This document shows positions 14,369 to 45,306 of a stretch of 48,370 nt of DNA, piece after piece. This stretch comes from Bdellovibrionota bacterium FG-2 (lineage in GTDB: Bacteria; Bdellovibrionota; UBA1018): contig JBBCAV010000317.1 of NCBI GenBank assembly GCA_051382305.1, positions 1 through 48,370 on the forward strand, in the 5' to 3' direction. Below the pieces are notes generated by a model. The model saw nothing but the letters and a program-made list of their open reading frames with translations. It was not told the DNA's origin and searched no databases. The translations under genes were made by a program, and so were the position numbers. The stretch's first letter is position 1, and each line of letters begins with the position of its first letter.

Positions 14369-15304
14369 TTATCGGCATTGCCTCATGATCGTAGTCGTAT
14401 AGAGGTGGCAAGTAGAGGGAAGTTTGCATTGTTTTTCGCTACTTATTTCGCCTGTAAATTCAGAAGGTTGAATGACAAACTCGAAGACATGGGGAGTAGG
14501 CCTAGGCGAAGGACTCACGATGGGGCTTGGCGACGGGCTGGTTGAAGGACCAGGAGAGGGACTTGTTGAGGGAGCTGTAGAGGGTACAGCGCTTGGGGTG
14601 GTTGAGGGTAATGGCGAGGGACTTGGAGAAGCACCCGTAAATTTCTGAAAGCTCCAGTCAATATGGAGAGTGATGTCAACCTTATCTCGATCTGCGCAGG
14701 TGAGCTTTCCCCAGAATTCTGCAGTTAAAGGTGAGGAGCATGCCTCGCGCGTCGCATCCGCTTTGAGATCAATTGTTCCGCCATCCACCGCAACGAAAAA
14801 GGTTCCGTCCGGCATGACTTCCCATGAGGTATCGAGGCTTCCGTCAGAGGTTCTAATCCCAATTACTTTTTTATAACAATCCGCTTGAATGATCATGCCG
14901 CGCAAAGGTTTTGAGAGTTCAATCTTTTTTCCTTCAAGAGGGCAGTCCCAAAGCCCCAGGTTTACAGGGACAAGTTGCGTGCTCATACCGTAGGGACACT
15001 GACTTGCAAGCATTGCGTTGCCAACGACCGCACGATAGCCGTCGTCGATGGGGCTTGGCTCAGGCCAAGGCTCTTCATCGACGGTTTCCGATGAAGGGTC
15101 AGGGGATTCGCTTGCAGAAGGATCTTCGGAATCAATTTGGGTCGAATCATCGGGAGTCTTTGAAGGCATTGCATCGATAAAGGGTTCCTCTTGGATGCTC
15201 TCGTCTAGCGAGGCGGGCCTACCGCAGCTCATCGCGTATAAGAGAAGAACCGTGCAGGATGAAAAAAGAAACAGGACCCAAATTTTATGTATGGCCGCTT
15301 TCAT
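14369..15304 (-). CDS. Hypothetical Cys-rich exported/lipoprotein with acidic and Pro/Ser-rich linkers
   Basis: Hydrophobic N terminus ending AMS-C, several Cys, and a PS/PT low-complexity tract. Confidence 0.65.
   Translation of the reverse strand: MKAAIHKIWVLFLFSSCTVLLLYAMSCGRPASLDESIQEEPFIDAMPSKTPDDSTQIDSEDPSASESPDPSSETVDEEPWPEPSPIDDGYRAVVGNAMLASQCPYGMSTQLVPVNLGLWDCPLEGKKIELSKPLRGMIIQADCYKKVIGIRTSDGSLDTSWEVMPDGTFFVAVDGGTIDLKADATREACSSPLTAEFWGKLTCADRDKVDITLHIDWSFQKFTGASPSPSPLPSTTPSAVPSTAPSTSPSPGPSTSPSPSPIVSPSPRPTPHVFEFVIQPSEFTGEISSEKQCKLPSTCHLYTTTIMRQCR
14495..14635 (-). repeat. Pro/Ser/Thr low-complexity coding repeat
   Basis: Encodes SPSPSPLPSTTPSAVPSTAPSTSPSPGPSTSPSPSP. Coordinates approximate. 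Confidence 0.7.
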
Positions 15305-15414
15305 GAAATGCTGGCTTTGCAAACGGGGAGCCAGTGTTGAGCAGTCGGAATGATGCGGAGAGGTAGGAACTCTAGGGGGCGTAGAATTCCGCATACGGAG
15401 TTAGCTAGTTTCGT

Positions 15415-16746
15415 ATGCGGAATTTTATAGGACGGACAGACTATCTCAAAACACTAGAAACCGAGTGGAAGCGGGACAAGAGTTCTTTAGTGGCGATGTA
15501 CGGCCGTCGCCGTGTCGAAAAAAGTGCGCTAATCCGTGAGTTTTCGCAGCAAAAGCCGGCTCTCTTTTTCGAGGGCCTTGAGGGTGAGCCCACTGCAACT
15601 CAGATTGCACATTTCCTAAAACAACTGAGCTTACAAATAAACGAGCCCCATTTGGCCGATTTGAAGTATTCGGATTGGTCTGACGTCTTTGACGAATTGA
15701 CATGGATGGCGGCTTCTAAAACGAAGCTAGTTAATCTCATTAAAGTATACTGGGACCAACAGTGGAAGCAGCATCCTCATTGTTTCCTCGTCTTGTGCAG
15801 TTCAATCGCTTCGTGGATGGTCAAGAATGTCGTAAAGTCCAAGGCCCTTTACAGCCCCCTGAGGTGGCGCAATTCATTGGAAAGGTTCGTGGCGAGCACG
15901 AGATTCTGCAATACCTCCTTTGTTTTGGAGGGGTACCCCGCTATTTGGAAGAGTTCGACTTCAAGAAATCGATCCACTGGAATATCGAGCGCACTTGTTT
16001 GTCAAAGTCTGGATTTTTCTACGATGAAGCCGATAAGATTTTTTACAATCAGTTTCACGAAACTCAGGTCTATAAAAAGATCTTTCATAGTCTTTTTAAA
16101 AATGGACCGGCATCGCTCGATGTCTTGGCCAAGCAAGCCAAGCAGCCCACGGGAGGGGGATTCAAAACCTATCTTGATAACCTCCAAAGCGCGGGGATAA
16201 TCGATGCGACATTTCCCATCCATAATTGGAAGGTCGCCAAGCAAGCGCGGTATCGGCTAGCGGATGAGTTTTGGACCTTTGATGGCAAGATCCTAGCGTC
16301 AATACGCATGAGATTAAGAAGCGCGCCGGGGGCTCACGCTTTTCAAAAATGGATTGCGCCCCAATGGGATTGCCTATTTGGGTTATGCTTTCGAACGATT
16401 TTGTCAGAAATACCGAAATCGCATTGCCGAGCTTTTAGAAATTGACTCACAAGTCATTGGTACGAGCCCACTCATTGTTGAGGAGAAAACCGCTTCAAAG
16501 GCACAGTTAGATTTAGTTTTTCTGCGGCAAGATCCTGTCATTACGTGTTGTGAGATTAAATATAGCAAGAATCGTATCGGACCCGAGGTCATTGCAGAAG
16601 TCGAGCGCAGGCACCAGAGGATTCTGTGGCCGAAAGGCGTGAGTGTAGAAAAGGTTCTGATCGTGACTCAAGAGCCCCTAGATTCGGTCAGAAAGAGCGG
16701 GTCTTTTGCGCAGATTGTGACGGCGGGGCAGCTGCTTGATAGTTGA
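15415..16746 (+). pseudogene. Archaeal-type ATPase/DUF234 nuclease-like protein, fragmented
   Basis: FIGR…YGRRRVEKS (Walker A Gly changed to Glu), FGGVPRYL, RYRLAD, GYAFE, QLDLV…CEIKY spread over three overlapping frames. Confidence 0.8.
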
Positions 16747-16771
16747 TCGTCGCAGATCCCGCGCCAAAGAT

Positions 16772-16882
16772 CTATGTTGCGCGCAGAGCGTTAATTAAAT
16801 AAAGAAGCAGGAGAGTCAGAAAGGAAAGCGTGAGTGGGAAAGTGACCCCAATAGGGAGCTTGCGTGTATTTCTTGAAGACAT
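16772..16882 (-). CDS. Possible 36-aa hydrophobic peptide or N-terminal gene remnant
   Basis: MSSRNTRKLPIGVTFPLTLSFLTLLLLYLINALRAT*, just downstream of a sigma54-like motif. Confidence 0.3.
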   Translation of the reverse strand: MSSRNTRKLPIGVTFPLTLSFLTLLLLYLINALRAT

Positions 16883-16894
16883 AATCCGTTGCTG

Positions 16895-16910
16895 TGCCTT
16901 TTTCGTGCCA
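16895..16910 (-). promoter_or_regulatory. Possible sigma54 (-24/-12) promoter
   Basis: TGGCACGAAAAAGGCA: perfect TGGCACG, GG-N10-GC spacing, weak -12 element. Confidence 0.4.
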
Positions 16911-17126
16911 AAATGCACAAAAACAGCCGACCGTCTTCGTAGATGGTAAATATTTAGAATTAGAGGGGAAATGCAGCTTGTCTCCTTTGCCGTCTTGAGC
17001 CGCGCAGGGCAATGCTGGTGTGTTTTTGACTTTTCGGGGCCAAGAAGCCCCCATCCAAGATACCTCCAATCTTGGGCATATCTTGGGTGCAACCCCTTCG
17101 ACCTTACGGTATGCTGAGTGGCAACC

Positions 17127-17465
17127 ATGCGATTGAAAGAGGGAAGTTCCCCTGTTTGGTGTTCTGCGGTTTCGTTAGGAAGCGATTCCTATGTGGGCGC
17201 AGCGGTACATTATATCGCTTCGATTTGTCCGGCTGTTTCGTATGTCGAGATTCGACTGAAGAAAAAGTTAGGAGAAAAAAGAGATTTTAAAATAGGCCGC
17301 GATCCTAAAGCAGGGAAATTGTTTACTTCTGAAATTCGAACTTCTCAAGGGAGCCCCGTGGGGACCCTGGTTATTCGAGGTCGATTTCCAGAGTTTTTTT
17401 TGCCTCAAAATCAAGCGGCTGTTGAAAAAGCGGTTTTAGAGCTGGGAGAGCTATGGCGCGAGTAA
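17127..17465 (+). CDS. Hypothetical protein, possibly a degenerate GAF-like domain
   Basis: Overlaps the next gene's start. C-terminal pattern (SEIRTSQGSPVGTLVI…F…AVEKAVLEL) resembles the end of a GAF domain. Confidence 0.45.
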   Translation: MRLKEGSSPVWCSAVSLGSDSYVGAAVHYIASICPAVSYVEIRLKKKLGEKRDFKIGRDPKAGKLFTSEIRTSQGSPVGTLVIRGRFPEFFLPQNQAAVEKAVLELGELWRE

Positions 17466-18016
17466 AAAAGATTCAGCCGACATTAGAGTTTTTGTTTTTT
17501 TCAACGCCAGAACAACGAGTTTTGAAGCTCTTAATTTCTGAACCCACCACGACCTTTTCGCTTCGGGTGATTGCTTCGCGCCTTAAGGGGGTCCGAGGTG
17601 TAGGAGGGAGTGAAGGACTCACCGAAATTTTGAGCGAACTGCAAGGCCTGGGTTTTGTTGAGTTTGTAGATAACAACCGAGCCGTACGTTTGCAGGATGA
17701 TGGCGCGGTCGTGCAAATGCTTAAGCGATTTTCTGCGATTTGTGATTTAGAGGGCTTGATTCAAACTCTTTCTCCAATTTCTACGAAAGGCATTTTGTTT
17801 GGCAGTCGGGCCACGGGAAGAGCCCGTTCGGACAGCGATTATGATTTGTTTGTCGTATCTGAAACGCCAGAAGAAATTCGTAAAATTGCGCTGCGCCACC
17901 CTCTGGGGCGCAGAATTGAACTCATCGCTTGGACCCCTGATCAGTATTCGGAAGTCGATGAAGAAGATCAGAAGCTGGCGCTCAAGTTAGGTCAGGGTGT
18001 AGTTTTGTGGGGCTAG
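17453..18016 (+). CDS. HTH + minimal nucleotidyltransferase (MNT/Pol-beta superfamily)
   Basis: ILFGSRATG…SDYDLFVV (GS…DxD motif), an N-terminal wHTH-like region and a GVVLWG end. Confidence 0.85.
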   Translation: MARVKKIQPTLEFLFFSTPEQRVLKLLISEPTTTFSLRVIASRLKGVRGVGGSEGLTEILSELQGLGFVEFVDNNRAVRLQDDGAVVQMLKRFSAICDLEGLIQTLSPISTKGILFGSRATGRARSDSDYDLFVVSETPEEIRKIALRHPLGRRIELIAWTPDQYSEVDEEDQKLALKLGQGVVLWG

Positions 18017-18792
18017 GCTATGCCAAACCGGTTCACTGGTGCCCATCGTGCGCTACCGCACTAGCGGAAACGGAGATCGAGTTCTCCAAGAAAACAAGTC
18101 CTTCGATCTATGTAAAATTTGAATTAAAGAAAGAAGCGTTGTCGGCATTTTCAGAGCTTGCGCAAGCGATGAAGCGATCGTCTGCTGAGCGGGCGTTTAT
18201 CGTGATTTGGACGACGACGCCTTGGACGCTTCCCGCAAATCTTGGTCTTGCCCTTCACCCCGAATTTGATTACGTGGCCCTTCCGGCGCCCACACTGGAT
18301 GGAACCGAGCTTTGGATTGTTGCCAAGGGTCTTCAAGCGAGTTTTGAAAAAGCGGTAGGATTTGAGAAATCAATTCCACCTGCTTTGATTTTCAAAGGAG
18401 AAAGGCTCCATCGTCAATCCGCTAAGCATCCATTTATGGATCGTGATTCGCTTATTGTTTTAAGTGATCATGTCTCCCTTGAAGTCGGCACGGGTGTCAT
18501 GCACACTGCCCCGGGGCATGGGGTGGATGATTATAATATCGGCATGTGCTATGGCCTTGATATTTTCTCTCCCGTGGATGATCGCGGGAGGTTTGATGTG
18601 GGGTTTGATGAAATGCAGGGCCAGTATGTTTTTGATTCAAATGACGCGATTATCGAAAAACTACGAGATTCAGGGCATCTTGTTACTCTTACTGATATTG
18701 CGCATAGTTACCCGCATTGCCGGCGATGTCATCACGCGGTAATTTTTAGAACGACGCGACGTTGTGCCCTGACTTTTGGAGGCTCGGTATGA
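18007..18792 (+). CDS. Free-standing isoleucyl-tRNA synthetase CP1/editing domain (ileS fragment)
   Basis: KPVHWCPSCATALA, WTTTPWTLPAN, GTGVMHTAPGHGVDDY, HSYPHCRRC..VIFR. No HIGH or KMSKS motif. Directly upstream of lspA. Confidence 0.85.
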   Translation: MGLGYAKPVHWCPSCATALAETEIEFSKKTSPSIYVKFELKKEALSAFSELAQAMKRSSAERAFIVIWTTTPWTLPANLGLALHPEFDYVALPAPTLDGTELWIVAKGLQASFEKAVGFEKSIPPALIFKGERLHRQSAKHPFMDRDSLIVLSDHVSLEVGTGVMHTAPGHGVDDYNIGMCYGLDIFSPVDDRGRFDVGFDEMQGQYVFDSNDAIIEKLRDSGHLVTLTDIAHSYPHCRRCHHAVIFRTTRRCALTFGGSV

Positions 18793-19319
18793 TGAAAGGG
18801 AAGTTGAAGTATCTCATTTTGTTTGCGGTTACTCTCTTTATTGTGGGCCTCGATCAATGGACGAAGGGGTTGGTGGTCGCACGTTTCAGATTAGGAGAGT
18901 CCATTCCAATTCTAGATGGCCTTTTTAGTTTGACCTATGTGCGCAACACAGGCGCCGCATTTGGATTGTTGGCGGGTGCTCATCCGGCATTTCGAGTTCC
19001 CTTTTTTGTGATAGTACCCATGATCGCTTTGATCGCAATTGGACTTATTTTTAGGAAACTTCCTGCTGCGGATAAAAAACTCTCTACGGCGCTGTCGTTG
19101 GTTATTGGCGGTGCAGTGGGCAATCTCATTGACCGACTCGCTCTGGGGTATGTCGTGGACTTCCTCGATTTTCATTGGAAGTATCTCTATCATTTTCCGG
19201 CCTTTAATGTGGCAGACGCCGCCATATGTGTCGGGGTAGGAATTTTGATGCTCGATTTGTTAACTCAAGAAACACTTCAAAAAAAGGAGTCCTCCTCGGA
19301 TGTATCCTCTTCTCGTTAA
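18789..19319 (+). CDS. lspA: Lipoprotein signal peptidase II
   Basis: DQWTK, NTGAAFG, GGAVGNLIDR, VVDF, FNVADAAI. Confidence 0.96.
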   Translation: MMKGKLKYLILFAVTLFIVGLDQWTKGLVVARFRLGESIPILDGLFSLTYVRNTGAAFGLLAGAHPAFRVPFFVIVPMIALIAIGLIFRKLPAADKKLSTALSLVIGGAVGNLIDRLALGYVVDFLDFHWKYLYHFPAFNVADAAICVGVGILMLDLLTQETLQKKESSSDVSSSR

Positions 19320-20085
19320 GTTAGGGCCGTTGCCAATCCATACCTATGGCTTCTTGATTGCGGTGGGTTTCTTGGTCGCAGTTTACGTTATTAGAACTTT
19401 GGCGACTAAGACGGGGCAGGATGTAGAACGGGTTTTAGATCTCACTTTTTGGGGTTTACTCGTAGGCTTTCTGGGTTCACGTATTCTATTCGTGATCACG
19501 CGTCTTGACTCTTTCATTCAGGATCCAGTGGGTATTCTTCGTGTTTGGGAAGGAGGGCTTGTGTTCCTGGGTGGGCCGATAGCAGCCGTGCCCTTTGTGG
19601 CCTGGTATGTAAAAAAGCATAAGCTGCCGCTTTGGAAAACAATGGATACCTTGATTCCGGGTTTGGTTATTGCGCATATGTTTGGTCGTTTTGGGTGTCT
19701 TGCTGCGGGTTGCTGCTATGGGAAGCCGACGGGCACTAGTTTTGGGCTACGTTTTTATTCAGATATGGTCGACAAGTCCCTTCAGGGAATTCCTTTGCAC
19801 CCAACGCAGCTTTATGAAGCAAGCGCCCTTTTTGTGCTTTTTTTGGGACTGCTCTATGTGTATCGAAAAAAGTTTTTTGATGGCCAGGTTGTCTTGACAT
19901 ACTTCATGGTCTATCCGATTGTTCGGAGCATCATCGAAGCCTTTCGAGGGGATATGATTCGCGGATTTGTGATTGATGATGTTTTGTCTACGAGCCAGTT
20001 TCTATCGTTAATCATTTTTGTCATTGCCAGTGGTGTGCTCGTGTTTCGTCTTAAGAGTCGAGATAAAGGGGGGGCGAAAGAGTGA
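19300..20085 (+). CDS. lgt: Prolipoprotein diacylglyceryl transferase
   Basis: IHTYG, GGLVFLGG, GRFGCLAAGCCYG, HPTQLYE, EAFRGD. Confidence 0.95.
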   Translation: MYPLLVKLGPLPIHTYGFLIAVGFLVAVYVIRTLATKTGQDVERVLDLTFWGLLVGFLGSRILFVITRLDSFIQDPVGILRVWEGGLVFLGGPIAAVPFVAWYVKKHKLPLWKTMDTLIPGLVIAHMFGRFGCLAAGCCYGKPTGTSFGLRFYSDMVDKSLQGIPLHPTQLYEASALFVLFLGLLYVYRKKFFDGQVVLTYFMVYPIVRSIIEAFRGDMIRGFVIDDVLSTSQFLSLIIFVIASGVLVFRLKSRDKGGAKE

Positions 20086-20678
20086 GTGCGATCGTAATCT
20101 TTCTCTTTGCTTTTTTTTTGGGGACGATCCCTTTTCGGGTGATATTTGTGCGTTTCCTGGCGCCACAAAAAGCGATTCTCGTTTCATTCGTTTTTGATCT
20201 ACTAAAGGGCGCCTTGCCGATTGTCTTGATCACGGTTCCGGGGCTGCAGTCTGCCCGCGAAGCTCTTGCCAAGTTTGCGGATGGCACCTTTTTTGGGGTG
20301 AGCAGTGAGGGACATCCTCTTTTTCTTCATCTAACCGCTTTATTTGTTTATCTGGGGCACTGCTTTTCACCCTGGGTCAGTTTTCGGGGGGGGCGAGGTG
20401 TTGCGACCGCCTTGGGGTGTTTGCTCGTGATTTCTCCTGCCGCTTCAATTGCGGGTATTCTTGGATTTCTCCTTTCCTTCCTTTCTAATAGGATTGTTTC
20501 TCTGGCGACGTTGGTGGGGGCGGCGCTTGCGGCAGTGGCCTATCTCATTGTTGAACCCACCGGTATGGAACTAGGGGTTGATGTTGTATTCTTGTTGTTG
20601 TTTCTTTCTCGACATGAATCGAGCATTGACGCGCTGTTGGATGATAGAGAAAAGCCATTTGTGTGGAAGAGGCGTTAG
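20082..20678 (+). CDS. plsY: PlsY-like glycerol-3-phosphate acyltransferase lacking motif 1
   Basis: DLLKG, GHCFSPW..FRGGRGVAT, VSLA, RHESSI..LL. The GSGN.GATN loop is absent. Confidence 0.7.
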   Translation: MSAIVIFLFAFFLGTIPFRVIFVRFLAPQKAILVSFVFDLLKGALPIVLITVPGLQSAREALAKFADGTFFGVSSEGHPLFLHLTALFVYLGHCFSPWVSFRGGRGVATALGCLLVISPAASIAGILGFLLSFLSNRIVSLATLVGAALAAVAYLIVEPTGMELGVDVVFLLLFLSRHESSIDALLDDREKPFVWKRR

Positions 20679-21592
20679 TGTTTAATAGGGCGTTCCTTAG
20701 GGTTTTCGTTTTCTTTCTCTTTGTTTTGTTTGCTTCTTCACCGCCCTTGGCGTTTGCGCGTGAAGTGCTCGATGCGGTGGGAATGCGGGTTAAACTCCAG
20801 GAAAAACCTCTTCGTATTGTCACGCTTGCCCCGTCGTTAGGTGAGCTTGTTTCGGTTTTTCTGGGTGAAGACTTCACACGTCTGGTGGGCGTTTCTGAGT
20901 ATTCTGATGTTCCTCTGGCTTTAAATAAGATTGTGTCGGTGGGTCCTTATAATCGTTTTAATCTCGAGCGAGTGGTTTCCCTCAAGCCTGATCTTGTTCT
21001 CGCAACGAAAGATGGGAACCTCCCGGATCAGATTCAGCATTTGCGCGAGATGGGGCTTCCCGTGGTGGTCGTAAATACAGATGATTTCTCCGAGATTGGA
21101 AATTCGATTAGGCTGGTAGCGAGCTCGATGGGCAATCCTGTCGAAGGTGAACAAGTTGCATTGCAGTTCCTAGACTCCCTTAAGCGTTTTAGCGAGGCAG
21201 TGAAAAAGAGGCGAGCGACCCAGGTGAAACGCAAGGTGTTGCTTCAGTTGGGCGACGACCCGCTTGTGGTCGTGGGAGCTAAGATTTTTTTGCATCATGC
21301 AATTGAGCTTGTGAATGCTGAGAACATCTATGGTGACGCCAAGGATCGCTATCCCAGGCCTTCCAAAGAAGACGTCGTAAGGCGAAATCCTGATGTCATT
21401 CTTGTCCTAGCTTTAGGAGGCGGGACGGCACAGTTTGAAGCAATGGTTCGAAAGTGGGGAATCTTGGGCGGTTTGAACGCTGTGAAAAATGGCAGAGTTA
21501 AGGTCCTTCACGCGGATGCACTTCTTCGTCCTACCTTACGTTTTCTAGAAGGCGTTTCACTCTTGGAAAGGGCAGTCTATGAAGAAAAATAG
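20678..21592 (+). CDS. Cobalamin/Fe-siderophore ABC transporter substrate-binding protein (BtuF-like)
   Basis: RIVTLAPS, NLERVVSLKPDLV, NPDVIL, AVKNGRV, LLRP. Confidence 0.85.
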   Translation: MFNRAFLRVFVFFLFVLFASSPPLAFAREVLDAVGMRVKLQEKPLRIVTLAPSLGELVSVFLGEDFTRLVGVSEYSDVPLALNKIVSVGPYNRFNLERVVSLKPDLVLATKDGNLPDQIQHLREMGLPVVVVNTDDFSEIGNSIRLVASSMGNPVEGEQVALQFLDSLKRFSEAVKKRRATQVKRKVLLQLGDDPLVVVGAKIFLHHAIELVNAENIYGDAKDRYPRPSKEDVVRRNPDVILVLALGGGTAQFEAMVRKWGILGGLNAVKNGRVKVLHADALLRPTLRFLEGVSLLERAVYEEK

Positions 21593-42499: not shown

Positions 42500-42698
42500 G
42501 TCCGGCTAGTGGCCATTTAGGCCGAAAACTGGATTCCAGTGCCATTTGGAAAATACCAAACCAAGCGCCCTCTTCGTGAGTGTTACCTTCGGTTAATGCT
42601 GTGCCCGAAGCCTCCTCACGTTTATCTTAAGTAGGATTCGACAAGATTAACTAGAAAATCCAAAATCCTGAATAAGACGCAGAGTGTTCAGGTATTTT

Positions 42699-44626
42699 GG
42701 TAGGTAGGCGGCGCACCTTACGGCGGCCGCCCCCATTAAAACCGGACTGGCGGTTTTCCCGCATCCGGCTTCCTCACTGACACGCTCGAGGGCTTATCGC
42801 CCTTTCGCCTCAAACAAAGAACAAGTTCCTCATGTGAGGATGATTTGGAAAACCGAGTTTCTCCAGGACTTCACCAAGACGCTTCCACGTGATGCTTCTC
42901 TTCTGGCTTCGCCGATTCAGCCACTTAAAGAGCATGCGTCGCACTTCCCGAAGGAATTGTTTCGCACGCCTTTGGTTGTCATTCACGGCGAAGTAGTTGA
43001 GGTATCCACGTACCACTTGTGTGATACGCTTCAGCAGAGTTTTCTCGTGGCGGTGCTTTTTGATGTGGGCTTGAATCTCCGAGAGTTTCTTTCTGAAACG
43101 TTTCGGACATGTCCGCCTTTTGATGCGCCAGAAGTGCACAGCCGCTTTTCTGTTCCAAGCTGTTCCCCAAACATGCAGGAAACCGAGGAACACGAACGTG
43201 GGCATTCTGCGCCCCTGTTTTGCGTATCTTGCGGCCATTTTCTGCCCGCACGGTAGCACCTTTGTCTTGTCTTCGTTCATAGAGATCCCAAAGCTCTTCA
43301 GTCGTTCCGCGAGTCTCAGGCGAAACCTCTCGGCTTCACTCAGGTCTCGGAAAGTGAAGACCGCGTCGTCTGCGTATCGAACCAGCCGTGCGCCTCCACC
43401 CATTTCCTGGCTGTTAAGCCAGTGGAACCAGATATCCATCACGTAATGGAGATAGAGATTGGCGATGATCGGTGAGAGGATTGATCCTTGGGGGGACCCC
43501 ACCTCGTTGCGTTCGATCACGCCATCCGACTTAAGAGTTGGGGCCTGAATCATTTTGATGATGAGATGTAAGAATCTCTGATCTTCAATCTTGAGCTTAA
43601 GCAGCCGAATAAGCGGCTCATGCGGGATCGTGTTGAAATATTTCCGGAGATCAATCTCCAATATCGCTCCACAATCCTTGCTCTTGAGATTTCCCCCTAG
43701 TGCCACGAGTGCTGTATCGCATCCGCGTCTCGGGCGAAATCCGTGTGAGCAGTCCAAGAATATTGGTTCATAGATTCGTTCGAGAACTTGACGTAGAGCC
43801 TCCTGAACGATCTTGTCTTCGTGGCAAGAAATCGCCAGAGGGCGCGTACTCCCATCCGTTTTCGGAATCTCTACGATTCGCGATGCTTGTGGATGGTACG
43901 AGCCTCTGCGCACCTTCATCAGCAAATCCTTCAGATTTTGGTCGAGATTTTCCTCATAATCCTCCTTTGTCACTCCGTCTATGCCCACCGCTTTCGCTCC
44001 GTCCAGCGCATGATGGCACCGTCCCAGCATTTCTAGGTCAAGCAGATGTCCAAGATTATTGAACGTCGCTTTCCTATCCTGCCGGGATCTTTGTTCTACG
44101 CGGTCAAGTTTTGTGTGCAAGTTCGATTGGTCCCTATGCTGTGTGGACACGCCTTGTTTCCCTCTTCCGTTTGTTAGTTACTGAGAGACCTTCTCTCCAC
44201 AGGCGTTGACCTGCTTCTACGGTACTACGCTCCCTCCGTCATCTCGCGGCCCGTCCGGTACGCTTCGGATTTCCCCTTTGCCGTACCTTGACGACTTCAT
44301 GTCGAGGCCGCGAGACTTCCCGTGTTGACTGCAACATCTCTCCACGCCCGCAAGGCTCTTAGACCCCGCCGTGGCCCTACCCCTCGCTTAACGGGTCAGG
44401 CTGTAGGCTTCACTCAATAAACACTGTTTGGCCCCATTCCGGAATTTTAGAAACTGTCGGGGCTGAATCGCTTCAGGCTTACGCTTTCAAGCTGGCGTGG
44501 TTCGCTCCATACGCTTCGTGCTCCCGTCACCGGGATTGGTCACGCAATGTTCGCTACGACATGGTTTGCTCTCCTTTGTCTGCGGGACTTACACCCGCAA
44601 GATGTTGCGCCCTTGGCACGGCGCAC
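42699..44626 (-). mobile_element. Group II intron, probably bacterial class E, full length (3' end at 42699 or 42700)
   Basis: 5' end GTGCG at 44626. Domain V GAAGCCGGATGCGGGAAAACCGCCAGTCCGGTTTT at about 42738-42772. Domain VI hairpin with a bulged A, ending CCTAC(C). Internal RT ORF. Confidence 0.93.
42810..44150 (-). CDS. ltrA: Group II intron reverse transcriptase/maturase with no endonuclease domain
   Basis: IPKTDG.TRPL, EDKIVQ, SHGFRP, GSPQGSILSP, RYADD, and X domain GYLNYF…WLNRRSQK. Confidence 0.95.
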   Translation of the reverse strand: MSTQHRDQSNLHTKLDRVEQRSRQDRKATFNNLGHLLDLEMLGRCHHALDGAKAVGIDGVTKEDYEENLDQNLKDLLMKVRRGSYHPQASRIVEIPKTDGSTRPLAISCHEDKIVQEALRQVLERIYEPIFLDCSHGFRPRRGCDTALVALGGNLKSKDCGAILEIDLRKYFNTIPHEPLIRLLKLKIEDQRFLHLIIKMIQAPTLKSDGVIERNEVGSPQGSILSPIIANLYLHYVMDIWFHWLNSQEMGGGARLVRYADDAVFTFRDLSEAERFRLRLAERLKSFGISMNEDKTKVLPCGQKMAARYAKQGRRMPTFVFLGFLHVWGTAWNRKAAVHFWRIKRRTCPKRFRKKLSEIQAHIKKHRHEKTLLKRITQVVRGYLNYFAVNDNQRRAKQFLREVRRMLFKWLNRRSQKRSITWKRLGEVLEKLGFPNHPHMRNLFFV

Positions 44627-45229: not shown

Positions 45230-45306
45230 TGGAGCGGGCAAAGGGGCTCGAACCCTCGACCTCAAGCTTGGGAAGCTCGCGCTCTAGCCAACTGAGCTAC
45301 GCCCGC
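45230..45306 (-). tRNA. tRNA-Gly (CCC)
   Basis: GCGGGCGTAGCTCAGTTGGCTAGAGCG…TTCCCAA…GGTTCGAGCCCCTTTGCCCGCTCCA: cloverleaf, T-loop GTTCGA, encoded CCA. Confidence 0.96.

Follow-up and report, generated by a model that had tools for sequence, protein, structure and literature searches.

A CP1-only remnant of a displaced type-1 ileS upstream of lspA in a Bdellovibrionota genome, and its candidacy as a free-standing class I editing domain

The window analysed here is a stretch of 48,370 nucleotides from Bdellovibrionota bacterium FG-2 (assembly GCA_051382305.1, contig JBBCAV010000317.1, forward strand), and its subject is a short open reading frame (ORF) that lies between a nucleotidyltransferase (NTase)-like gene and lspA. 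The ORF encodes the zinc knuckle and CP1 editing domain of an isoleucyl-tRNA synthetase (IleRS) of the bacterial type 1, the product of ileS1, and it is referred to below as a relic of that gene. Its frame contains zero stops and zero frameshifts and measures 276 aa from stop to stop. The ORF, its parts and the adjoining genes are as follows.

17453..18016 (+): NTase-like gene (PF01909), the ancestral neighbour of ileS1; its stop overlaps the GTG of the relic, and its last 3-4 codons have been lost
18007..18792 (+): relic ORF, zinc knuckle plus CP1 editing domain of the ancestral type-1 ileS; 261 aa, GTG start; assigned from the frame, phmmer, NCBIfam, the AlphaFold2 (AF2) model and Foldseek
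18040..18051 (+): CPSC, N-terminal CxxC of the CP1-hairpin zinc knuckle, residues 12-15, directly after KPVHW
18208..18240 (+): Thr-rich editing motif WTTTPWTLPAN, residues 68-78, in the register of E. coli Thr241-Thr246/Leu247
18268..18369 (+): block best kept across all relic ORFs, residues 88-121, a predicted beta hairpin plus helix outside the editing motifs
18487..18531 (+): GTGVMHTAPGHGVDD, residues 161-175, carrying His166 and Asp175
18718..18729 (+): CRRC, C-terminal CxxC of the zinc knuckle, residues 238-241; CWRC in full-length relatives
18757..18792 (+): tail RRCALTFGGSV plus stop, the last codons of the old ileS1 fused in frame to VIFRTT, as judged from the ileS1 3' ends of two relatives, G010 and G002
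18789..19319 (+): lspA, signal peptidase II (PF01252, 1.1e-42), translationally coupled to the relic to judge by the stop/start overlap
19300..20085 (+): lgt, prolipoprotein diacylglyceryl transferase (PF01790, 9.7e-61), overlapping the end of lspA

What identifies the ORF as an IleRS CP1 domain is the combination of a CP1 fold, the Thr-rich motif with its His...Asp pair, and a four-Cys knuckle. The knuckle at the base of CP1 is present as sequence (CPSC and CRRC), metal binding being a prediction from that sequence, and a zinc-finger motif on the CP1 hairpin of IleRS is described in the available part of a published account (PMC4138327). By motif register, which was inferred without alignment to the E. 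coli sequence, Thr69, Thr74, His166 and Asp175 correspond to E. coli Thr241, Thr246, His333 and Asp342; all four are present, and the 9 residues that separate His166 from Asp175 equal the spacing of His333 and Asp342. The sequence VIFR stands at residues 245-248, and the ORF terminates 13 residues beyond it.

Similarity to IleRS stops near residue 252. In phmmer searches, residues 6-252 align to positions 180-411 of the S. aureus enzyme (E 1.8e-51), and isolated CP1 chains of T. thermophilus are matched as well. The NCBIfam ileS profile (TIGR00392) is covered at positions 173-422 of 861 only, with 224 bits against a cut-off of 621. PF00133 reaches 15.6 bits, under its cut-off of 22.7, leaving no Rossmann catalytic core with HIGH and KMSKS halves, and PF08264, the anticodon-binding domain, has no match in the ORF. 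The flanks, which consist of the NTase-like gene and lspA, likewise contain no Rossmann-half or anticodon-domain sequence. The ORF is not an isoleucine-tRNA ligase, since the Rossmann core and the anticodon-binding domain are both missing. An earlier note on this DNA, made from the letters alone, had reported the uninterrupted 261-aa frame, the positions of the knuckle, WTTTPWT, His...Asp and VIFR, the drifted positions CRRC, VMH and SDHV, and the loss of both Rossmann halves and the anticodon domain; the first three are found at 18007..18792 (+) as it described them, and the last is borne out by the profile matches and the flanking genes.

The predicted structure agrees with this picture. The AF2 model has a pLDDT of 94.9 and a pTM of 0.91 and is confident over residues ~1-250, with a disordered tail of 11 residues. 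Its top Foldseek matches are IleRS1 structures, with E values from 8e-30 to 1e-28 (8wnj, E 8e-30; 8c9f, query TM-score [TMq] 0.83), and against the isolated T. thermophilus CP1 domains it gives target TM-scores (TMt) of 0.86-0.87. Because the borders of the ORF coincide with the zinc-finger hairpin, the CP1 module that it encodes can be regarded as structurally self-contained.

At its 3' end the ORF retains the classical connection to lspA. The ATGA overlap that had been noticed there is real: lspA has candidate starts at 18789 and 18792, and the relic stop, TGA at 18790-18792, overlaps both ATGs. With the second ATG the arrangement is TGATG, the same as at the full-length ileS1-lspA junction of G010, and the ribosome-binding site of lspA, GGAGG at 18778-18782, lies inside the relic tail. 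A promoter and terminator scan of 16700-20800 gave counts at or under the shuffled expectation.

The origin of the ORF can be traced by comparison with related genomes (75 of the family and 116 of the order), among which G000 denotes the window genome, G001 its sister species, and G002 and G010 two relatives with a full ileS1. Contig C281 of G000 encodes a second, complete IleRS of 1055 aa with tRNA-synt_1, Anticodon_1 and DUF5915 domains, and among PDB entries it scores highest with cytoplasmic IleRS (1068 bits), followed by P. megaterium IleRS2 with 762 bits; IleRS1 reaches 362 bits. Judged by these matches, the C281 enzyme is a eukaryote-like type-2 IleRS that supplies aminoacylation in G000, in agreement with the supposition of the earlier note that another ileS does so. 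A full or contig-split ileS1 occurs in 13 of the 75 family genomes; none of the 13 has an IleRS2-type match, and no IleRS2 genome of the family has a full ileS1. The locus reads NTase-like gene, ileS1 (951-956 aa), lspA and lgt in G010 and G002, and NTase-like gene, short ORF, lspA and lgt in G000 and G001. The mutual exclusion of ileS1 and IleRS2 within the family, together with the order of genes at the locus, argues that the ORF is what is left of an ileS1 whose place ileS2 has taken.

Two deletions at domain borders had been proposed to explain the ORF, and both junctions could be mapped against the full-length relatives. The 5' deletion has its ends at a GGGG(T/C) microhomology and fused the NTase-like gene, just past the codons for Leu-Trp-Gly, to ileS1 at about codon 188. 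Twelve of 14 NTase homologues carry four residues (GSSW or a variant) past the shared Trp, and only G000 (LWG, then the stop) and G001 (LW, then the stop) are clipped at this C-terminus. Outside this pair the NTase C-termini are intact, which suggests at least two different 5' junctions among the relics. The 3' deletion is in frame and joined VIFRTT to the final ~10 codons of ileS1, in which an RC left from the C-terminal Cys motif can be made out; it left the GGAGG site and the native TGATG overlap of lspA intact. The G001 relic begins with a GTG at the same position as that of G000, an extra ~30-nt deletion between TTTT repeats and a small compensating indel are enough to turn the 3' junction of G000 into that of G001, and the two relics are sisters in the CP1 tree (support 98/97). 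These shared features suggest that both junctions probably predate the G000-G001 split. Deeper in the order, the CP1 tree places all 15 relics, with the G000 ORF among them, on one side of one branch, weakly (62/22), and the backbone of a two-gene species tree (lgt and the NTase-like gene, 17 genomes) is unresolved; single and multiple truncations cannot be told apart from these trees.

A ratio of nonsynonymous to synonymous change (dN/dS, or omega) had been proposed as a check on whether the frame is maintained. Synonymous divergence is saturated between all genomes compared, and the NG86 omega values that follow are rough for that reason. Between G000 and G001 the relic has a dN of 0.298, a dS of 2.08 and an omega of 0.14, well away from 1, and the NTase-like gene, lspA and lgt of the same pair have omega values of 0.03-0.04 with equally saturated dS (1.4-2.8). 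Within genus g52 the relic gives an omega of 0.05-0.18, a range like that of lgt. The relic ORFs are real proteins under purifying selection, beyond frames kept for read-through, and the marks of a pseudogene (stops, frameshifts, a dN/dS near 1) are all missing from the G000 ORF, with the same caution that omega is rough at saturated dS.

The G000 sequence has also stayed close to that of complete enzymes. Thirteen full-length CP1s of the order have 54 invariant columns in common, and the G000 sequence differs at 5 of these (A22T, Y26F, T157S, V165M and W239R); in leave-one-out comparisons, 12 full-length rows deviate at 0-2 columns and one outlier at 13, and the relics of G001, G005, G053 and G089 deviate at 27-35. 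G000 shares with the G010 enzyme an identity of 0.67 in the core (N) half and of 0.64 in the editing-site half. The tip branch of G000 in CP1 is 0.11-0.17 substitutions per site (0.16 in the tree) versus 0.47-0.55 for G001 (0.55 in the tree), and three-taxon distances give the G000 branch 0.11-0.17 for CP1 versus 0.05-0.08 for neighbour genes. When neutral evolution of the ORF was simulated (5000 runs), 0.1 substitutions per site left no stop with a probability of 0.067 and both motifs unchanged with a probability of 0.02, and at 0.7 substitutions per site the frame and the motifs each survived in 0 of 5000 runs. The G000-G001 split corresponds to roughly 0.7-1 synonymous substitution per site per lineage. 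Given the shared junctions and the saturated dS, neutral decay cannot explain the open frame unless the truncation is very recent.

A search for similar CP1-only genes, which the earlier note had called for, showed that the ORF belongs to a family. Short ORFs homologous to the CP1 part of ileS1 only are found in 16 of the 116 genomes of the order, and all 16 have IleRS2. Beside the window ORF of 261 aa, the relics measure 252 aa in G053, 227 aa in G005, 215 aa in G089, 175 aa in the sister species G001, 159-173 aa in genus g52 (8 of 9 genomes), 113 aa in G061 and 95 aa in G032, which belongs to a different family; the relic of G007 is interrupted by a run of N, reads in two frames, and was excluded from the alignments, the tree and the rate work. 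When a profile of the g52 ORFs was compared with 1.84 billion protein representatives, 38 matched at E <= 0.001, 33 of them of the short relic type (90-252 aa). The degenerate relic ORFs are not recognized by Pfam or NCBIfam. Like the rest of the family, the G000 ORF is short, follows the NTase-like gene and contains the conserved core block, within which the relic alignments show P95, G99, E101, W103, E114 and G118 to be invariant or nearly so.

Motifs were counted over 41 relic sequences, from which five of the 38 profile matches were excluded, namely P0147, P0154 and P0159 (long multi-stretch proteins) and P0133 and P0158 (which resemble pieces of a full ileS1), as was P0122, a duplicate of the G070 row. 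Both CxxC pairs are kept in 5 of the 41 and lost in 36. The g52 relic, which lies between the NTase-like gene and lgt, is without the knuckle and without both editing motifs; its model (pLDDT 94.8) is that of a diverged CP1-like domain (Foldseek E 1e-6, TMq 0.5-0.62), and look-alikes of a g52 relic in the ESM Atlas reached a best score of 0.84 and provided nothing usable.

The interpretation that we prefer, with a probability of roughly 0.45, is that the ORF is a selectively kept stand-alone CP1 and serves beside IleRS2 as an active trans-editing deacylase of mischarged tRNA(Ile). A type-2 eukaryote-like IleRS took over aminoacylation, and two deletions reduced the original type-1 ileS. The first ran from the last NTase-like codons to ~ileS1 codon 188; the second removed, in frame, everything between VIFR(T)T and the final ~10 codons. 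What remained is exactly the knuckle-clamped CP1 module, with the old stop codon and the coupling to lspA retained. This module would be translated by coupling at both ends and is predicted to fold as a complete CP1 domain, and the junctions and rates suggest that purifying selection has held it since before the G000-G001 split. Acting in trans, it may hydrolyse Val-tRNA(Ile), and tRNA(Ile) mischarged in similar ways, after their release from IleRS2. In the passages available from a study of the E. coli enzyme, Thr241 and Asp342 act in hydrolysis, and Thr246 and His333 are negative determinants that block attack on Ile-tRNA(Ile) (PMC9023258); the Thr74/His166 pair of the ORF would provide the same guard. 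A free CP1 should either keep the whole pocket with its negative determinants or lose its activity entirely, as a half-decayed pocket would be harmful. This all-or-none logic fits the observed pattern, with one relic intact and 40 whose pocket is destroyed, and it is on these grounds that the trans-deacylase interpretation is preferred. G000 also shows one mark of the trans-editing families, in that a homologue of an editing domain has its own gene and the genome encodes a complete synthetase as well.

Several observations weigh against a trans-deacylase. A second mark of trans-editing families, the conservation of catalytic residues across the free-standing family, is not seen: the Thr-rich motif and the His...Asp pair are present in 1 of the 41 relics, that of G000 only, and in G001 the editing-site half has been deleted in frame. 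With that half lost from G001 and the residues lost from 40 of 41 relics, editing is dispensable in close relatives, and the conserved function of the family lies elsewhere. The G000 ORF is a singleton: in a set of 5.8 billion clusters it has 1 member sequence, found on 1 contig. A search for proteins of near length gave 1823 matches, and the 9 examined of the 120 listed, mostly on long contigs, all came from full IleRS, as incomplete or frameshifted fragments whose borders differ from those of the ORF. When metagenomes were scanned with the ORF, the best match was a full-length relative with 50% identity, and CP1-only loci numbered 0 among 80 metagenome loci, in 75 of which the Thr-rich motif lies in a frame of at least 700 aa; 4 shorter frames run off the contig end, and 1 is a closed frame of 688 aa. 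The IleRS2 on C281 carries both editing motifs in its own CP1, so that the need for a second editor is not evident, and an isolated CP1, lacking the domains that bind the body of the tRNA, is expected to be a weak enzyme. Among the five substitutions at invariant columns, W239R lies in the knuckle and V165M next to His166, so that two of them affect functional elements. On the G000 branch CP1 has evolved at ~2-2.5 times the rate of the neighbour genes, compared with ~0.65 times for full-length CP1, which implies that constraint has been relaxed about 3-4 fold, far from lost. The GTG start is preceded by a weak purine run, and the assembly is fragmented and 85% complete. Finally, if the truncation were recent and independent of that in G001, the rates would allow a young, undecayed relic.

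Among the rival explanations the strongest, though still an unlikely one, is that the ORF is kept for a family-wide, non-catalytic role of the N-terminal CP1 core (residues ~35-135), the pocket in G000 being incidental or vestigial. Such a role would be borne by the block at residues 88-121 and linked somehow to the always-adjacent NTase-like gene. It would account for the spread of relics through 16 of 116 order genomes and 33 short representatives among 1.84 billion proteins, for a g52 relic that has neither knuckle nor motifs and yet shows an omega of 0.05-0.18 and a confident fold, for the location of the invariant residues in block 88-121, outside the pocket, and for the persistence of the relic beside the NTase-like gene even where lspA has moved off. 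It would also lead one to expect the editing half of G000 to be decayed or deleted, as in G001, G005 and G089, whereas identity there is 0.64 against 0.67 in the core, with all catalytic and negative-determinant residues retained; moreover, no function can be named for it. A complex prediction for the NTase-like protein and the relic scored 0.00, which counts neither way on binding.

A still less likely alternative is that the ORF is a young, pseudogene-like remnant without protein function, its frame open through recency and perhaps through coupling to lspA or avoidance of polarity. The relic has kept its native stop/start overlap with lspA and still overlaps the stop of the NTase-like gene, two mutually compensating indels in G001 keep its frame ending at TGATG, the relics form a series of stepwise shrinkage across lineages (261, 252, 227, 215, 175, ~170, 113 and 95 aa), and a short neutral phase could be the source of the extra change on the G000 branch (about 0.07-0.13 per site). 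Coupling alone, however, imposes no amino-acid constraint, and omega is 0.14 between G000 and G001 and 0.05-0.18 in g52; junction features common to G001 date the truncation before a split at which dS is saturated, and only 6.7% of the neutral runs still have an open frame at 0.1 substitutions per site. A long coexistence followed by late truncation is seen nowhere else, 0 of 75 genomes having both a full ileS1 and ileS2, and the g52 relic persists without a downstream lspA. The caveat of the earlier note, that the frame might be kept solely for lspA coupling, is unlikely to apply, because amino-acid change is constrained (omega 0.14) and the g52 relic has been conserved though lspA left the locus. 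It is highly improbable that the ORF is an artefact of assembly or binning, from a chimeric contig or a misassembled ileS. The fragmentation of the assembly (433 contigs, 85% complete, 4.4% contamination) might raise that suspicion, but positions 17400-19400 are found with 0 differences in a single contig of 21,092 nt from another assembler (one public run), which spans both junctions; the run is possibly from the source sample, and the match is not counted as independent support. No RNA data set is listed among the runs that contain the sequence. In addition, the G001 genome, which is 98% complete, has the same gene order with a relic at the same place, and both junctions are accounted for base by base against full-length relatives. 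There looks to be no sign of an assembly error at either junction.

The candidate trans-editing CP1 of G000 resembles several known systems in part. It is like the CP1 that works in cis in bacterial type-1 IleRS in sequence, fold, knuckle hairpin, both motifs and position upstream of lspA, and differs in being encoded alone, without the Rossmann fold, the KMSKS half, the anticodon-binding domain and the C-terminal zinc domain. Its borders are nearly identical to those of the recombinant T. thermophilus CP1 constructs (1WK8, 1WNY, 1UDZ and 1UE0), on which the model superposes with the TMt of 0.86-0.87 given above; those were made in the laboratory, whereas the ORF occurs in nature and extends over the two halves of the zinc knuckle as well. 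Lin, Hale and Schimmel are said to have found in 1996 that cloned CP1 fragments deacylate mischarged tRNA. In AlaXp, YbaK/ProXp and ThrRS-ED, which are of class II origin, as in the ORF, a synthetase editing domain has a gene of its own in addition to that of a complete synthetase; they have no relation to the ORF in fold or synthetase class, and those families are widespread with their catalytic residues kept, whereas the intact ORF is a singleton. With the degenerate relics of the order it shares the locus (after the NTase-like gene and before lspA and/or lgt), ancestry, the core block and purifying selection, and they differ from it in their length of 90-252 aa and in the loss of the editing motifs (40 of 41) and mostly of the knuckle (36 of 41).

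The available text of one survey of free-standing editing domains lists AlaXp, the ThrRS editing domain and YbaK only (PMC3158927), and in the part of a 2024 review at hand CP1 is shown only inside LeuRS, ValRS and IleRS (PMC11295145). No natural free-standing CP1 appeared in the portions of the literature searched, which included PMC3532385 and PMC8319005, in keeping with the earlier note, which knew of no described family of free-standing IleRS CP1; the supplements of the ileS1/ileS2 surveys (PMC4861432 and bioRxiv 10.1101/2022.02.09.479832) lay outside that scope and might list a truncated ileS1. As far as these partial texts go, free-standing editors derive from class II synthetases or related folds, and class I CP1 is known within synthetases only. 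Tentatively, the ORF may be at once an active free-standing class I editor, the first of its kind, and the ancestral-state survivor of a family that was repeatedly stripped of its pocket and exapted to a non-catalytic job tied to the NTase-like gene and the lipoprotein-maturation operon. If the trans-editing interpretation is true, the locus would offer a natural system for asking whether class I editing works without the synthetase body and whether a type-2 IleRS needs help with fidelity. The graded series of relics gives a rare view of an essential gene dismantled after its displacement, with one domain surviving under selection.

Throughout the order, in the loci that were read, ileS1 or its relic always has the NTase-like gene beside it. 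The NTase-like protein has a conserved N-terminal part of ~90 residues ahead of the PF01909 region, and it matches the MntA antitoxin model weakly (29.5 bits, cut-off 60). The Gly-Ser...Asp-x-Asp stretch is present in G000, G001, G010, G032, G089 and G061 and missing from 8 of 8 g52 genomes, where the gene is under strong purifying selection (omega 0.02-0.07); the g52 protein may by now be non-catalytic, alongside a non-catalytic relic. In four g52 genomes (G067, G074, G066 and G073) lspA is on other contigs, with two Peptidase_A8 matches per genome, and the relic stands directly before lgt.

Upstream of the NTase-like gene, three overlapping frames of 261, 227 and 130 aa at 15415-16746 (+) look like one frameshift-broken ATPase gene, with a weak match to PF01637 (ATPase_2) confined to the first ~45 residues (E 1.6e-4, under the cut-off). 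A Pro/Ser/Thr-rich, Cys-containing, secreted-looking protein is encoded at 14369-15394 (-) and at L023 2001-2945, and such a protein is found near the locus in G000, G001 and G005, a resemblance judged by eye from the ORF lists. Elsewhere in the window, Rfam matches to a group II intron on the (-) strand, domains 1-4 at 44354-44591 (87 bits) and domains 5/6 at 42694-42773 (45 bits), together span 42694-44591 and adjoin a tRNA-Gly(CCC) gene at 45230-45306 (-).

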